Shown here: one piece after another, positions 7,005 to 49,703 of the stretch | Numbering within the stretch: the first letter of the stretch is position 1 | Layout of the letters: every line of letters starts with the position of its first letter | NCBI GenBank assembly: GCA_963726265.1 | Contig: CAVSBQ010000002.1 | Span: forward strand, 128,001 to 192,000 | DNA: 64,000 bases | Source of the DNA: Candidatus Aenigmatarchaeota archaeon | GTDB taxonomy: Archaea > Aenigmatarchaeota > Aenigmatarchaeia > QMZP01 > QMZT01 | Reading direction: 5' to 3' | The notes under the pieces: generated by a model | Database searches by the model: none | Seen by the model: the letters and a program-made list of their open reading frames with translations, nothing else | Told to the model about the DNA's origin: nothing | Translations under genes and position numbers: made by a program

Positions 7005-7745
7005 ATGAAATATGGGAGAATGAGGCTTAATCGCTACCAGTTAAAAAGTATTGAAAACTTAACTAAAGATGGCAAATCTCTGCAGCACATATCAAATATC
7101 ACCGGCATAAAAAAGACGACTATTTACTACCACACCCGAAAACTCAAAGGAAAAAGTATACAGATGCCTATCATAAGATTCGATTCGGATGAAAAGCTGG
7201 GAGAAGCCATCGGTATATTTACAGGCGACGGTAGTTTATATTTTGAGCCAGGAAGATATCACTATCAGGTTAGGGTGCATTTCGGTATAAAAAACCTGAA
7301 TTATTTGAATCATGTTAAAGATTTATTTGATGCGTCATTTGGTAAAAAATTTCTTATAAAAATGGATGGCCCTAGAAAATTTGTTTTACAGATATATTCA
7401 AAGGAAATATTTGCTTTTTTCCATGATTTTCTCGATTTCGAAAGCCGAGATAAATCAAAAAGTGTGAGTTTGAAAGAGAAATTTTTGAAAAACGAGGTCT
7501 TTGCCAAAGGTTTTCTAAGAGGTTTGCTTGACACGGATGGTACGATATCGAAAACCAAGAACGGTATAAAAATAGCCTTTTATACTTCCTCTCACAAACT
7601 AGCTCAACAGATATCGTTTTTATTGAAAATGTTTGAAATAAGACATGGTATAACATCATCCAGAAAAGGCCAATATAATGTTTATATATTGAAAAAGGAT
7701 AACAATAGAATCGTCAAACTACTAAAACCATTTAAGGGCCGGTAG
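7005..7745 (+). CDS. Free-standing double-motif LAGLIDADG endonuclease with N-terminal HTH
   Basis: HTH SLQHISNITGIKKTTIYYH; motif 1 EAIGIFTGDG; motif 2 FLRGLLDTDG; no intein splicing motifs; AT-rich. Confidence 0.85.
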   Translation: MKYGRMRLNRYQLKSIENLTKDGKSLQHISNITGIKKTTIYYHTRKLKGKSIQMPIIRFDSDEKLGEAIGIFTGDGSLYFEPGRYHYQVRVHFGIKNLNYLNHVKDLFDASFGKKFLIKMDGPRKFVLQIYSKEIFAFFHDFLDFESRDKSKSVSLKEKFLKNEVFAKGFLRGLLDTDGTISKTKNGIKIAFYTSSHKLAQQISFLLKMFEIRHGITSSRKGQYNVYILKKDNNRIVKLLKPFKGR

Positions 7746-7845
7746 ATCAGCGGTAGATCGCCACCTTGGCATGGTGGAGAAACCTTGTTTCTGCAGAAAG
7801 GAAACATGGTTCCATAAGCCTCGGGTTCAAATCCCGACCGGTCCA
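7736..7845 (+). tRNA. tRNA-Ala(GGC) with 38-nt intron at 45/46 (7780-7817)
   Basis: Acceptor GGGCCGG/CCGGTCC+A; anticodon arm CCACC-TTGGCAT-GGTGG; T arm TCGGG-TTCAAAT-CCCGA; BHB with helix GTGG/CCAT, bulges AG|A and AA|G, inner helix AACC/GGTT. Confidence 0.92.
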
Positions 7846-39441: not shown

Positions 39442-39570
39442 GCCGATGTGGCTCAGTGGCTAGAGCACCGCGCTCATATCTTTTTGAGTTATGAGATTCG
39501 AGACATTGGTTGAAGCCGTGTCTGTGAGAGGGAAACGCGGGGGTCGTGGGTTCAATTCCCACCATCGGCA
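39442..39570 (+). tRNA. tRNA-Met(CAT), probably elongator, with ~56-nt anticodon-loop intron (39479-39534)
   Basis: Acceptor GCCGATG/CATCGGC+A; D stem GCTC/GAGC; anticodon stem CCGCG/CGCGG; T arm GTGGG-TTCAATT-CCCAC; BHB imperfect, so junction may shift by 1 nt. Confidence 0.88.
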
Positions 39571-39631: not shown

Positions 39632-40519
39632 ATGGTGAAGAAAAAGAAAGAGACGAGGGAGAAGGGCTACGAATCGCTGAAGGACAAGACCGGGCCCATC
39701 AGGAAGGAAAAGATAGACAAGGTCATACAGATGCAGGAAAAGAAGAGGATTGACGCGGTGACGCAGAAGAAGAAAGGCATACCCATAGCGTATGCCGCAC
39801 TGATAGTCATCGTCATCGCCGCGCTCGGCGCGGTCCTGCTTTTCGCGGTGCCGAGGTTCAACACCGCGCCCGTTAAGGCGGGGGACATGGTGCAGATAAT
39901 ATACGTCCTGAAGCTCCAGGACGGCTCTGTCTTCGAGACGGGCAACTTCTCGTTCAGGGTGAATTCGAGCGAAGTCATACAAGGCGTTGACGAGGCGATG
40001 ATAGGCATGAGAGTCGGCGACAAGAAAACAATCACCGTCACTCCGGACAAGGCGTATGGCTACTATGATGAAAGTAAAATTATGGATGTTCCTCTTGTCA
40101 ACGAGAGAAACATTACAATGGACATAGACATAGATGCTTTTAATGCATCTTTTGGTGAAATGCCAATTCTCAATAAAACCTACTATATAGAGGGCATGGA
40201 ATGGGACCTGAGAGTGATAGATATACAGAACAGCACAGTTAAACTTGAAGATGAAGTCCAGAATGGCACGACATTTGACATGAAAAACTACGCAGGTGAA
40301 ATTTACGCAAAGGGAACTGTTAACATAGAAGGTAATAAACTGATAATGACGACTCATCCTATAAAAGGAGGCATAATTTACGCCCCAACTTTATATGGTT
40401 ACGAAGCCGGCAAAATAGTTGACTTCAACGAAACACATATGAATCTTGACTTCAACAACCCGCTTGCGAGCAAGACGCTGACCTTCGAGATAACGCTGCT
40501 CAGCATGATTTCTTACTGA
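39632..40519 (+). CDS. Membrane-anchored FKBP-type peptidyl-prolyl isomerase with long insert-in-flap
   Basis: VIQGVDEAMIGMRVGDKK, PDKAYG, LDFNNPLASKTLTFEI. Confidence 0.85.
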   Translation: MVKKKKETREKGYESLKDKTGPIRKEKIDKVIQMQEKKRIDAVTQKKKGIPIAYAALIVIVIAALGAVLLFAVPRFNTAPVKAGDMVQIIYVLKLQDGSVFETGNFSFRVNSSEVIQGVDEAMIGMRVGDKKTITVTPDKAYGYYDESKIMDVPLVNERNITMDIDIDAFNASFGEMPILNKTYYIEGMEWDLRVIDIQNSTVKLEDEVQNGTTFDMKNYAGEIYAKGTVNIEGNKLIMTTHPIKGGIIYAPTLYGYEAGKIVDFNETHMNLDFNNPLASKTLTFEITLLSMISY

Positions 40520-40611
40520 AGCAGCGCTTCTTTTTATTTTTTCCTTTCTTTTGTTTGTTTTTAATTGAATATTTAAATAATTCTGTTTTATACTCACTTA
40601 TGAGTTAAAAA

Positions 40612-41526
40612 ATGGATTTTGGGCATGGAATTATTTACAGCCCTAAAACTGATAAATTTCATTACGTGGGAAATTTAGACGAATTGAAACTTAATGCACC
40701 ATTGACTGTTGTTGTTGAATTGCTCTATGACTGCAATTTATCATGTGGTTTTTGCATGAAATTGGATGATGTTAAAAGAATACCATCTTACGATGAAAGC
40801 GCATCTTATCTGGATAAACTTTCCTTTAATGACCATCCTATACGTACAGTAATATCGGGAGGAGAACCATTTCTCAGAAAGGATATTGAAAGGGTATTGC
40901 AACATGGGCATTCGAAAGGGCACATTCAAAATTTAGCTACCAATGGAATTCTTGTGAACCCCAATAAATCTTTGGTTGAATGTGTTAATGTTTTTGAAGT
41001 TGGGTTAGATGGTAATACATCTGAAACGTACAAGTCTGTCAGAGGTAGCGATGGATATGATGCAGTTGTTGCCAACATACAAAAGTTAACCGATTTGGGC
41101 GCAAACGTCAGGGTTACCTACTTATTGACAAAGAAAAATGCATCTTCCGCGAAGGAAATGCCTGAGCTATGCTCTAGGCTGGGTGTTTCAAAACTAAGGT
41201 TACAAAGATTTATTAGATATGGAAGAGGTGCAAAAAATTATCAGGAATTTGAGCTCAGTGACGAGGAATTACACAGGGTAGTTGAAGAAACCAAGGACGA
41301 TGCCAGCCGCTTTGGAATTGAATTACGAACTCCGCCAGCCAAACAGTACTATTATGGTGTTATTTTTATTACACCTCAAGGGGATATTATGTACAGAAAC
41401 GGAAGCGGAGATGAAGATAGTACACGTAGATTAGGTAACTTGAAAGAAACAGATTTGTCCGAAGTTTGGACGCCTGAAATGTCTGATGCGCATAAGAAGA
41501 TTATCTTTTTTCCAGATATGTTGTAG
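40612..41526 (+). CDS. Radical SAM protein, AT-rich
   Basis: CNLSCGFC, SGGEP, ATNG, GLDG. Confidence 0.88.
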   Translation: MDFGHGIIYSPKTDKFHYVGNLDELKLNAPLTVVVELLYDCNLSCGFCMKLDDVKRIPSYDESASYLDKLSFNDHPIRTVISGGEPFLRKDIERVLQHGHSKGHIQNLATNGILVNPNKSLVECVNVFEVGLDGNTSETYKSVRGSDGYDAVVANIQKLTDLGANVRVTYLLTKKNASSAKEMPELCSRLGVSKLRLQRFIRYGRGAKNYQEFELSDEELHRVVEETKDDASRFGIELRTPPAKQYYYGVIFITPQGDIMYRNGSGDEDSTRRLGNLKETDLSEVWTPEMSDAHKKIIFFPDML

Positions 41527-41553
41527 ATTTATAAGACCTTAAATCAAGGTCGT

Positions 41554-41748
41554 TTACTTCTTGAACTTGCCTATCTTGTCAATCATGTCAACGTGCGTCA
41601 GAAACAGCGAGCGGCAGCAGTATCTCTCGAGGCCAAGCGAGTCTAGGACCGTCTTCGGCGCGGTTCCGTCATGGACTTCCTTCTGGAACTTCTCCCACAA
41701 ATGGCCCACGGGCTTGCCGCAGGTCATGCAACGGATTGGTATTATCAT
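41554..41748 (-). CDS. rpo10: RNA polymerase subunit Rpo10 (N)
   Basis: [12 protein letters not shown]...RYCCR. Confidence 0.95.
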
Positions 41749-41812
41749 GCGCATCACGAAGCTGCATTGCAAATCTTGGTGTCTTTATTTAACGCAAAGG
41801 GGCTTTAAAAGC

Positions 41813-41950
41813 TTATCCCCCGACACCCTCGTTCAAGAAATCCTTTACTTTCTTCCTCGTCTTTTCGGGCATCTTTATGATATCGGCCGTCTCCTTCGTC
41901 CTATTTATCTCGAGCATGTCTATGTTCCTCATTTTTTCCTTTAAGCCCAT
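41813..41950 (-). CDS. Small hypothetical protein (45 aa)
   Basis: Manual translation MGLKEKMRNIDMLEINRTKETADIIKMPEKTRKKVKDFLNEGVGG; host-like codons. Confidence 0.5.
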   Translation of the reverse strand: MGLKEKMRNIDMLEINRTKETADIIKMPEKTRKKVKDFLNEGVGG

Positions 41951-42002
41951 GAAAAAGACCTCTATATTTAATATAACTAACCAGATATAATAATACCCGG
42001 AT

Positions 42003-48318: not shown

Positions 48319-48618
48319 TTATTCGTCGGCTTCGGTGTTTTCCTTTCCGGATTCCTCGTCAGCAACAGGGAGCGATATGTGCTTTATTATTATCACGTCG
48401 CCTATGGATTCTATCATGGGGAACGGGATAATCACCCCTTTCTTGCTGCCCAGCATCTTGGAGATGTAGGACTCCTTCGCGGCGCGCACGACAAGCGAGC
48501 GTATCTTGAACCTTTTGAGGTCGCATTCGATGTCCTCGACCTTGCCGCAGAACATCCCCTTGTTCGTGAAAACGTCCTTGCCATATGTTTCCGAAATGCT
48601 GGCAACTTTTATCGCCAT
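48319..48618 (-). CDS. PRC-barrel domain protein (CdpB-like)
   Basis: YGKDVFTNKGMFCGKVEDI...GVIIPFPMIESIGDVIII. Confidence 0.85.
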   Translation of the reverse strand: MAIKVASISETYGKDVFTNKGMFCGKVEDIECDLKRFKIRSLVVRAAKESYISKMLGSKKGVIIPFPMIESIGDVIIIKHISLPVADEESGKENTEADE

Positions 48619-48737
48619 ATACCCACCTCTTTCGCTTTTTATGGAAAATTCAGTCTGATATCTAATTTACGGACAGTGTTTATAAAGTTTCCGAATTTAA
48701 GGCGCTGATATTTAAATCACGGCGTGCAAATTCAGCC

Positions 48738-49373
48738 ATGAGAAGGCTTTTTTCGCTCGATGCCGAAATCCTCGGCGAGGCGTGCGGCGTCTTCGCCGGC
48801 GACGGCGGCATCTACCATGCGGGCAGGAGCTACGCGCTCGAGGTAAGGTGCGCGCCTGACGACGCAGCGTATTACGAGGGCCATGTGAAGCCGCTCTTCG
48901 AGGAAGTCCTGAAGGCCAGGCTGAAAACGTGCAAAAGGTCATACCAGGGCGGCCATGCCGTATGCATCCGCTTCTGCGGGGCGCGGGCCATGAAAATTTT
49001 CCACGTCTTCCTCCAGTTCCCGCTCGGGAGGAAAGCGAACGCGCTACGCATGCCCAAGCTCGTCTTCAACAACCACGAATGCTGGAAAGCGTATGTGCGC
49101 GGCATGTTCGACTCGAGCGGCTCGCTATACCTCAGAAAAACTGCCGGAAAATACAGGAATCCCGTAATAGAAATTTCTTCGCCGTCCATCGCGCATCTGC
49201 TGCAGCTGAAGGAGATTCTGCGCGACATGGGCTTCGGCTTCTGGCTGGAAAAGGGGAACCGCAAGATACGTATCGCGGGCAGAAAGAACGTGGAAAGATT
49301 TTTTAAAGAGATAAACCCACATAATAATGCAAAACGGAAAAAGTTCGCTGAAATAATGCGGACGGGCAAATGA
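48738..49373 (+). CDS. Free-standing LAGLIDADG-family protein with degenerate second motif
   Basis: EACGVFAGDG and YVRGMFDSSG; host-like GC-rich codons; no intein motifs. Confidence 0.8.
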   Translation: MRRLFSLDAEILGEACGVFAGDGGIYHAGRSYALEVRCAPDDAAYYEGHVKPLFEEVLKARLKTCKRSYQGGHAVCIRFCGARAMKIFHVFLQFPLGRKANALRMPKLVFNNHECWKAYVRGMFDSSGSLYLRKTAGKYRNPVIEISSPSIAHLLQLKEILRDMGFGFWLEKGNRKIRIAGRKNVERFFKEINPHNNAKRKKFAEIMRTGK

Positions 49374-49385
49374 CGCAAAACAAAA

Positions 49386-49508
49386 GCTGAGATGGCCGAG
49401 TGGTTAAGGCGCAATAGCTTCCGGTGATTCGCGAGGGTTCCGGAAACTGCGCAAGGTTGCTAACCTTGTGTCCGAAAGGACGCGCAGGTTCGAATCCTGC
49501 TCTCAGCG
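49386..49508 (+). tRNA. tRNA-Ser(GCT) with 40-nt intron at 29/30 (49415-49454)
   Basis: Acceptor GCTGAGA/TCTCAGC+G; long variable arm GTCC-GAAA-GGAC; BHB helix GCGC/GCGC with bulges AA|T and AA|G; inner TTCCGG/CCGGAA. Confidence 0.92.
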
Positions 49509-49703
49509 TTACTTTTTACACCATACGCTGGTCTATAGGCGTATGAGTAATTGAGTGACGCACACACTCGTCATGTCGCCTGCCATTAATGCTTTTGTTT
49601 GATTCCCTGCCTTTTTGCATACAAAGCGTATCATGATTTAGCGTGGCGCTAATACTGGACTATTACCGATTTTGCCTTTGATGGGTAAAGGCAATAAAAC
49701 GCT

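Follow-up and report, generated by a model that had tools for sequence, protein, structure and literature searches.

A LAGLIDADG homing-endonuclease cassette in an archaeal tRNA-Ser(GCU) gene: repeated loss of catalytic residues in a conserved protein that may regulate its own cassette

Homing endonucleases are expected to decay after fixation. The targets of LAGLIDADG enzymes consist of half-sites beside a variable spacer, and phage collaborative homing pairs a free-standing endonuclease with an intron that carries no open reading frame (ORF) of its own. Each LAGLIDADG domain is described as reading one half-site, and the acidic residues at the helix ends, D20 and E117 in I-DmoI, as essential for catalysis; these residues are reported as absent in WhiA, which has the LAGLIDADG fold and regulates its own gene (PMC3384342). 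The same source describes I-TevI as repressing its own promoter through a site that resembles its homing site. Mobile ORFs (mORFs) of fungal mitochondria are reported to create gene hybrids, as in atp6 of Allomyces macrogynus and atp6, atp9, cox2, and nad3 of Glomus (PMC3630166). Here, we describe a LAGLIDADG ORF of 211 codons (48738..49373) that precedes the transfer RNA (tRNA) gene tRNA-Ser(GCU) in a 64,000-nucleotide (nt) stretch of DNA, hereafter the window, which corresponds to C2:128001-192000 in the genome of a Candidatus Aenigmatarchaeota archaeon (G000; 1.13 Mb in 4 contigs). Comparison with relatives indicates that the ORF is an old remnant of a homing-endonuclease cassette inserted in this tRNA gene at about position 27-29. 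Whether its protein is now a domesticated, sequence-specific DNA-binding regulator of its own cassette we judge to be an even call.

The protein belongs to the LAGLIDADG homing endonuclease fold, as a monomer with two motifs. Pfam matched it to LAGLIDADG_WhiA (PF14527; 1.1e-8, 35.5 bits, cut-off 23.2) and to LAGLIDADG_3 (PF14528; 6.2e-5, 23.6 bits, cut-off 22.5); no helix-turn-helix (HTH) family was found by Pfam at E <= 1, and the chain stops about 10 residues past the LAGLIDADG fold. The AlphaFold model (predicted local distance difference test, 89.1) has helices at residues 9-22 and 113-127, with strand pairs after each. In a Foldseek comparison with the PDB, the model gave 141 matches at E <= 0.001 with LAGLIDADG enzymes at the top, among them I-Tsp061I, I-DmoI, I-AniI, bI3 maturase, and WhiA. 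I-Tsp061I (2dch) aligned with template-modeling scores of 0.72/0.75 and a root-mean-square deviation of 3.2 over 204 columns. The similarity surfaced by fold search only, since phmmer returned 0 matches at E <= 1 against PDB sequences. Orthologues are labeled "WhiA" by one protein source, the labels being automatic. Motif 1 reads GVFAGDG and keeps its aspartate, D22 (codon 48801-48803), while motif 2 reads GMFDSSG, with S127 (codon 49116-49118) in place of the expected Asp/Glu. In active LAGLIDADG enzymes, each helix ends at its C terminus with an acidic residue, and here a serine stands at 127, the equivalence to the acidic residues of I-DmoI being set by motif and helix end. The frame is intact up to its TGA stop (49371-49373), and the G+C content at third codon positions (GC3), 0.72, is close to the host median of 0.71. 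Thus, what an initial annotation had read from the sequence was confirmed: host-like codon usage, no HTH, an intact frame with a DSSG second motif, and an end 12 nt before tRNA-Ser, which starts at 49386.

Of 60 related genomes searched, 7 have an orthologue at this site; they cover five genera of the family, and the orthologues show 54-71% identity and no internal stops. A metagenome scan yielded 14 further full-length orthologous loci, all intact, plus 2 more that run off the contig, and a protein search 23 additional orthologues; the 5 loci from a scan of genome contigs were all already in the set. Broken copies were found neither among the 8 genome loci nor among 12 complete, nonredundant metagenome loci. 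Over unsaturated pairs, the Nei-Gojobori ratio of nonsynonymous to synonymous rates (dN/dS) was 0.059 for L002-L003 (dS 0.58), 0.20-0.31 within the genus, 0.14-0.16 to L005, and 0.07-0.17 among L006-L008. At the same loci, the identity of the ORF to G000 (55-77%) lies above that of the adjacent aminopeptidase (38-71%), with a similar rank order, which argues for vertical descent and for a constraint stronger than that on this housekeeping neighbor. The cassette thus looks vertically inherited in this DPANN family, and the alignments indicate that the ORF is kept by strong purifying selection and is not decaying. The initial annotation had proposed dN/dS among orthologues as a check on retention and had counted neutral evolution or frequent pseudogenes among relatives as grounds to give it up; the observed ratios (0.06-0.31 for unsaturated pairs) and the unbroken copies both speak for selection.

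This conservation does not extend to the catalytic residues. Among 32 distinct full-length orthologues, 9 carry aspartate at both motifs, denoted (D,D), 16 have lost one of the two, and 7 have lost both and read N/N, S/R, K/R, H/R, or S/C. The residues found at position 127 are D, R, S, N, A, G, H, and C; this position ranks as the 9th most variable of 211, while the residues around it, F124, D125, G128, and S129, are invariant. There are 55 invariant residues across the 32 orthologues, of which 20 lie in predicted β-strands, including Y26, E35, R67, R78, Y131, R133, T135, Y139, N141, W169, E171, and R178. A quick maximum-likelihood tree, for which four (D,D) outgroups served as the root and in which 10 of 33 inner branches are unsupported, places the (D,D) forms at the base and requires at least 6 changes from D to non-D at each motif. 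The clade of 14 rows that contains G000 has no aspartate at motif 2, yet its dN/dS is 0.06-0.31. The pattern indicates that the catalytic residues are dispensable, the aspartates having been lost many times independently while the rest of the protein, polar residues of the predicted β-strands included, stayed strongly constrained. The degeneracy of the second catalytic position, proposed for G000 in the initial annotation, is real and belongs to a position that varies among the 32 orthologues. With one acidic site left, the G000 protein could at most nick.

The comparison of occupied and empty sites reveals how the cassette is built. In 7/7 relatives' genomes, tRNA-Ser(GCU) comes immediately after the ORF. 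The stop of the ORF falls within the tRNA in six of them, as a TGA in the acceptor (L002-L004) or a TAA in the D-loop (L005, L007, and L008), and upstream of the tRNA in one (L006); a read-through tail ends, for example, in ..IMLRWPSG before the stop. Because the stop lies inside the tRNA in 6/7 relatives, the 12-nt gap in G000 is a derived state. No orthologue was found in the six family members whose tRNA-Ser locus is free of the cassette (G006, G008, G014, G018, G019, and G022). These share the upstream PRC-barrel gene, and their empty site consists of a TATA box (TATA1, TTTATAAAG), 13-45 nt, and tRNA-Ser. Where the ORF is present, the order is TATA1, a variable stretch, TAAGGCGC, five nucleotides, TTTAAA, about 21 nt, ATG, the ORF, and a complete tRNA. 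The variable stretch between TATA1 and TAAGGCGC measures 9-28 nt in the 8 genome loci, TATA1 being unrecognizable in L008. The upstream TAAGGCGC is identical to tRNA bases 49405-49412, which lie shortly before the 29/30 site, and distant (D,D) relatives (L077, L078, and L080; 34-37% identity) have the whole original 5' part of the tRNA upstream, ending at about position 26-28. The empty and occupied sites, together with the TAAGGCGC remnant, therefore indicate that the element entered after about position 27-29 and brought positions 1-29 with it, and that most of the original 5' part was deleted later. On this comparative evidence, the cassette comprises a predicted promoter box, the LAGLIDADG gene, an internal promoter-like element, and replacement tRNA positions 1-29, and a mini-intron at 29/30 lies at its seam. 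The locus thus combines an endonuclease ORF in a host gene, a substitute end, and a displaced native end, the three marks of an mORF-type cassette. We also considered whether the ORF resides in a giant intron, which is ruled out by the mere 8 nt of upstream exon left. Within two genera (g6 and g7), presence of the ORF is patchy.

Upstream of the ORF, only two blocks are invariant in 20/20 distinct regions, TAAGGCGC and TTTAAA (TATA2), which stand a fixed 5 nt apart between flanks that vary. TATA2 lies 21-23 nt before the ATG in most loci, and we infer that it serves as a promoter with a leaderless messenger RNA. In L007, the tRNA's own copy of TAAGGCGC is changed and the upstream copy is not; thus, the remnant is conserved in its own right. 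A metagenome contig with a more distant orthologue (L073, 49% identity) has GGCGC-N5-TTTAAA before the ATG, and its own tRNA-Ser has CTGCG at the matching place, so the promoter-side motif is not a simple mirror of the local tRNA. The sequence TTAAGGCGC occurs 9 times in G000 and is followed by a TATA box at the ORF upstream site only; with 1/9 genomic copies preceding a TATA box, its use as a general promoter motif is ruled out. In size, and in its place beside a variable spacer, the remnant fits one LAGLIDADG half-site. Last, TATA1 is kept in most ORF-bearing loci and may now also serve the divergent gene 48319..48618.

A further conserved element is embedded in the ORF itself. Normalized synonymous-codon entropy falls to 0.15-0.26 in codons 181-198, as compared to 0.58-0.90 in the preceding windows. 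The consensus of codons 186-196 is GAA AGA TTT TTT AAA GAR ATA nnn CCA CAT AAT, despite the GC3 of 0.72 in G000. A single codon is used for F188, K190, P194, H195, and N196 in 20/20 distinct coding sequences, and for E186, R187, F189, and I192 wherever the residue is present (17-19/20). The TTTAAA/TTTATA hexamers of this element are also used by host tRNA promoters. We consider it a candidate for the cassette's own tRNA promoter, as it resembles a purine-rich B recognition element (BRE) with a TATA box. With such a promoter inside the ORF, cotranscription of ORF and tRNA is possible and not required, and obligatory cotranscription is in doubt. A search for sequencing data sets that match window positions 48600-49560 listed no RNA set, and the best DNA sets contained at most 0.28 of the sampled words. 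The features of the locus are collected in the table.

Table. Annotated features of the LAGLIDADG cassette and tRNA-Ser(GCU), in window coordinates
Feature	Position	Strand	Basis or conservation
TATA1 (TTTATAAAG), ancestral promoter box of tRNA-Ser(GCU)	48679..48687	+	common to ORF-less relatives; kept in most ORF-bearing loci
TAAGGCGC, remnant of the original tRNA 5' part (its final 8 nt, ~positions 20-27), candidate half-operator	48698..48705	+	invariant in 20/20
TATA2 (TTTAAA), predicted promoter box of the cassette for the ORF	48711..48716	+	invariant in 20/20; 21 nt before ATG
LAGLIDADG ORF, 211 amino acids, monomeric two-domain fold	48738..49373	+	Pfam, AlphaFold model, Foldseek, dN/dS
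Embedded BRE/TATA-like element, codons 186-196, candidate internal tRNA-Ser promoter	49293..49325	+	synonymous-site conservation
12-nt spacer from ORF stop to tRNA, derived state	49374..49385	+	6/7 relatives' ORFs read into the tRNA
Replacement 5' part of tRNA-Ser(GCU), positions 1-29, cassette-borne	49386..49414	+	Rfam, fold, comparison with ORF-less alleles
40-nt mini-intron at 29/30, relaxed bulge-helix-bulge, at cassette seam	49415..49454	+	minimum-energy fold, homologous introns in relatives
Resident 3' part of tRNA-Ser(GCU), positions 30-73	49455..49508	+	Rfam, fold

The tRNA was called by Rfam at 49386-49508 with 45.1 bits (gathering score 29). Its anticodon loop reads UUGCUAA, which identifies it as tRNA-Ser(GCU), and it is the sole full match to this tRNA in G000. 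In the minimum-energy fold of the precursor (z = -4.57), GCGC at tRNA positions 24-27 pairs with GCGC at the 3' end of the intron, and two bulges of 3 nt (AAU and AAG), one per strand, flank this central 4-bp helix as in a bulge-helix-bulge motif. The usual cut in such motifs comes after the second bulge base, which gives a predicted intron of 40 nt at 29/30. Because the outer exon-exon helix does not form, the motif is a relaxed one. The noncanonical 29/30 intron of the initial annotation is thus supported by the fold. Homologous introns at 29/30 were found at ORF-bearing loci (L003, L006, L008, L056-L059, L061, and L063-L067) as well as at ORF-less ones (L032, L045, and L050). The intron is missing beside a conserved ORF in L002, L004/L060, L005, L007, and L062, and the tRNA-Ser of L002 (84 nt) and L007 (83 nt) has no intron at all. 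In this family, tRNA-Ser genes have up to several odd introns each. Rfam found only tRNAs in the window, so a group I intron is ruled out; the 39 archaeal group I introns covered by PMC6125680 are all described as lying in ribosomal RNA (rRNA) genes. By a hand tally, 5/6 distinct (D,D) loci and 9/13 distinct non-(D,D) loci have the 29/30 intron, with exceptions on both sides: L062 is (D,D) without it and L066 is (N,N) with it. The idea that the intron is kept as immunity only while the enzyme cuts is not supported by these counts, which are small and come from related lineages.

Some relatives show further rearrangements around the tRNA. Between the ORF stop and tRNA-Ser, loci L058, L059, L061, L063, L064, and L006/L068 have 1-2 extra partial copies of the first 7-11 nt of the tRNA, together with roughly 30 nt inserted behind tRNA position 7, and the ORF-less L045 and L050 likewise carry a leader copy of the acceptor 5' strand. 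These copies may reflect repeated replacement of the 5' end or leader pairing for a 7/8 intron. In L062, tRNA-Ser runs straight into an NN scaffold joint, beyond which the same tRNA begins a second time, possibly because two alleles of the locus were merged at assembly.

If the protein is a regulator of its own cassette, it would no longer need to cut and would be kept for sequence-specific DNA binding. Its likeliest binding site would be TAAGGCGC-N5-TTTAAA, in which the left half of the ancestral target is joined to the gene's own TATA box. The protein would then regulate the gene that encodes it, in the simplest case as an autorepressor, which would keep transcription from the ORF promoter off the embedded tRNA promoter. 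Expression of the sole tRNA-Ser(GCU) would thereby depend on the protein, and because of this dependence, the protein would be retained only where the cassette is present. Among the functions offered by the initial annotation, a DNA-binding regulator fits best, given the invariant remnant of the old target that abuts the ORF promoter. A bolder form of the proposal, which we put forward tentatively and consider doubtful, holds that a homing endonuclease has turned into the obligatory cis-regulator of the essential single-copy tRNA gene that it invaded. It would be an archaeal counterpart of WhiA without the HTH, still in transition, with the old half-target and its own TATA box as operator and the tRNA promoter within its coding sequence. 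In that case, the dependence of the host on a dead selfish gene would amount to an "addiction."

Several points weigh against a regulatory role. TTTAAA lies just 7 nt from the ATG in L007, which does not fit a leaderless start there, and TAAGGCGC could owe its conservation to a role as an unusual BRE-like promoter element or to binding by another factor. The internal TATA box stands 84 nt before the tRNA in G000 and, by a hand estimate, about 58 nt before it in the overlapping forms, as compared to 28-41 nt for other host tRNAs; all promoters were called by motif alone. Six family members do without the gene, which is thus not generally essential. In addition, the dN/dS span comes from unsaturated pairs only, with many other dS values saturated, the tree is the product of a quick search, and the whole analysis was done in silico on genomes that are all metagenome bins.

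We weighed four other explanations against the same data. The protein might still be selfish, acting as a nickase through D22 or a substitute residue, so that nick-induced repair copies the cassette into empty tRNA-Ser genes. D22 is kept in G000, 9/32 orthologues are (D,D), and the patchy presence of the ORF in g6 and g7 is what a homing cycle predicts. However, the 7/32 orthologues without both catalytic aspartates are equally conserved, so nicking is not the conserved function, and the nickase role suggested by the initial annotation did not hold up in this respect. The absence of the motif-2 aspartate from the whole 14-row clade at low dN/dS, a fully host-like composition, and a divergence that tracks the flanking genes also make continued selfishness unlikely. 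The initial annotation further suggested a maturase-like helper for the pre-tRNA. Such a protein would bind pre-tRNA-Ser and guide the splicing endonuclease to the relaxed 29/30 motif. In favor of this role, the motif forms without its outer helix, tRNA-Ser introns in this family are odd and sometimes several, bI3 maturase is among the top structural matches, and LAGLIDADG maturases that have lost cleavage are described as established for group I introns (PMC3384342). Maturases are, however, encoded in the cognate intron and needed for its splicing, while this ORF lies outside the intron. It is equally conserved beside the tRNA-Ser genes that have no 29/30 intron, including the fully intron-free ones of L002 and L007, and three ORF-less relatives have the homologous intron at the same site. 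A helper in cis is therefore improbable, and we rate the maturase-like role as quite unlikely overall.

As an immunity protein, the dead enzyme would occupy the tRNA-Ser target and shield it against active relatives of the same specificity; active-looking (D,D) forms do exist in related lineages, and the intron-free tRNAs of L002 and L007 regenerate the full target. Selection for such shielding would be weak because the attacker must first enter the cell, and shielding leaves unexplained why an invariant remnant sits at the ORF promoter and is kept in L007 despite the changed tRNA copy. We therefore hold an immunity role to be quite improbable. Last, the frame might be open merely because its DNA carries the tRNA promoter and leader, the protein being functionless. 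The frozen synonymous sites of codons 181-198 and the overlap of the ORF tail with the tRNA in most relatives would agree with this. The frozen stretch, however, covers about 18 of 211 codons, and the remaining codons vary freely at their synonymous sites while the encoded residues stay conserved, as reflected in the 55 invariant residues and the low dN/dS; thus, this explanation fails and can be considered very unlikely. A domesticated DNA-binding regulator is the explanation that we favor.

The pairing of LAGLIDADG genes with tRNAs is not confined to this locus. All three free-standing LAGLIDADG ORFs of G000 end at or just before a tRNA gene on the same strand, so the pairing is not due to chance. 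The other two copies have a GC3 of 0.34 (window 7005..7745) and 0.28 (C2:418641-419227), as compared to the host-like value of the ORF described here. This agrees with the initial annotation, which saw in it an ameliorated, older representative of a LAGLIDADG family linked to tRNAs. Of 12 paralogue loci examined in relatives, six have an ORF that continues into the 5' end of a tRNA on the same strand (L009, L014, L017, L018, L012, and L019), and five have one that abuts or overlaps a convergent tRNA at its 3' end (L010, L011, L013, L015, and L016); at one (L020), the tRNA is absent. The tRNAs of L009, L014, L017, L018, L010, L011, L013, and L015 were identified by script or Rfam and those of L012, L019, and L016 by eye. 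Multi-intron tRNAs of the relatives were missed by Rfam even in E-value mode and were recovered with a T-arm/acceptor script and by eye.

The first of the other pairs in G000 consists of ORF 7005..7745, which is AT-rich, encodes 246 amino acids, reads DTDG at motif 2, and has weak, sub-threshold HTH matches at its N terminus. Its TAG stop forms bases 8-10 of the downstream tRNA (7736-7845), whose insert of about 39 nt is placed near the variable region by Rfam. This pair appears to be a young cassette of the same type. The third pair lies outside the window (C2:418590-419303), where a 12-nt copy of the 5' end of initiator tRNA-Met at 418624 is followed by an AT-rich LAGLIDADG ORF and the complete tRNA; AGCGGGG occurs three times there. 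In a genome of the same genus (G001, locus L020), the orthologue of this ORF and the downstream gene are immediate neighbors, and the tRNA is absent from between them. A fourth LAGLIDADG match in G000 (C2:847998-848489) consists of two LAGLIDADG_3 matches within one open frame of 888 amino acids, probably an intein-borne endonuclease in a host protein. Within the window, a 58-nt insert interrupts the anticodon loop of the tRNA at 39442-39570 (Rfam, 59.9 bits), which has no LAGLIDADG gene in its vicinity. Run without its intron mode, ARAGORN detects 1/4 window tRNAs. The region 40000-42000 has a G+C content of 0.365-0.425, against about 0.54 around it, and is a possible foreign island; we noted a 295-residue ORF (39632..40519) and a 304-residue ORF with a CxxxCxxC-like motif (40612..41526) in connection with it.

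Taken together, these data place at one genomic site a graded natural series of proteins with both, one, or no catalytic residues, all under purifying selection and with a candidate DNA site adjoining. The step from selfish nuclease to host regulator thus becomes directly testable. They also point to stand-alone LAGLIDADG cassettes as remodelers of tRNA genes in ultra-small archaea, where they replace ends, carry promoters, and sit at mini-intron sites, a behavior that bears on the origin of odd archaeal tRNA introns. Endonuclease cassettes with replacement gene ends and the domestication of LAGLIDADG proteins are already known. What is new is a tRNA-resident archaeal lineage with a graded transition, a candidate operator, and a candidate embedded tRNA promoter. 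In our literature search, made outside subscription journals, none of the listed titles and opening abstract lines described endonuclease cassettes in archaeal tRNA genes.

The closest described system is that of the mORFs, which, as portrayed in the source cited above, likewise have a free-standing LAGLIDADG gene in a conserved host gene that brings a substitute end and leaves the native end stranded beside it. Here, in contrast, the host gene is an archaeal tRNA, the 5' part is replaced, and a mini-intron of the splicing-endonuclease type lies at the seam. The native end is also down to 8 conserved bases, and the nuclease is retained long after losing catalytic residues. Phage collaborative homing similarly has a free-standing endonuclease gene beside a gene that carries a small intron within the presumed target, but in this lineage intron presence does not track catalytic status (5/6 versus 9/13). 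The best structural matches, I-Tsp061I and the many I-DmoI entries, are also monomeric two-motif archaeal enzymes; they are, however, active and encoded in rRNA introns, and their sequence similarity to the ORF protein is below phmmer detection. As in the accounts of bI3 and I-AniI, a LAGLIDADG protein appears to be selected for a noncutting function after point changes in the catalytic motifs. Unlike those maturases, the ORF lies outside an intron, Rfam finds no group I intron in the window, and orthologues stand beside intron-free tRNAs. Repression of its own promoter, as described for I-TevI, would be a shared feature, although I-TevI is a GIY-YIG enzyme that remains active. With WhiA/DUF199, which provides a top Pfam match and a structural match, the ORF protein shares the LAGLIDADG fold, the loss of helix-end acidic residues as described for that family, and retention of the protein. 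It lacks the C-terminal HTH domain that WhiA uses and, as such, does not belong to WhiA/DUF199 proper. It also differs in belonging to an archaeal lineage that remains at its homing site and in which the loss of catalysis is in progress, as 9/32 orthologues are still (D,D).

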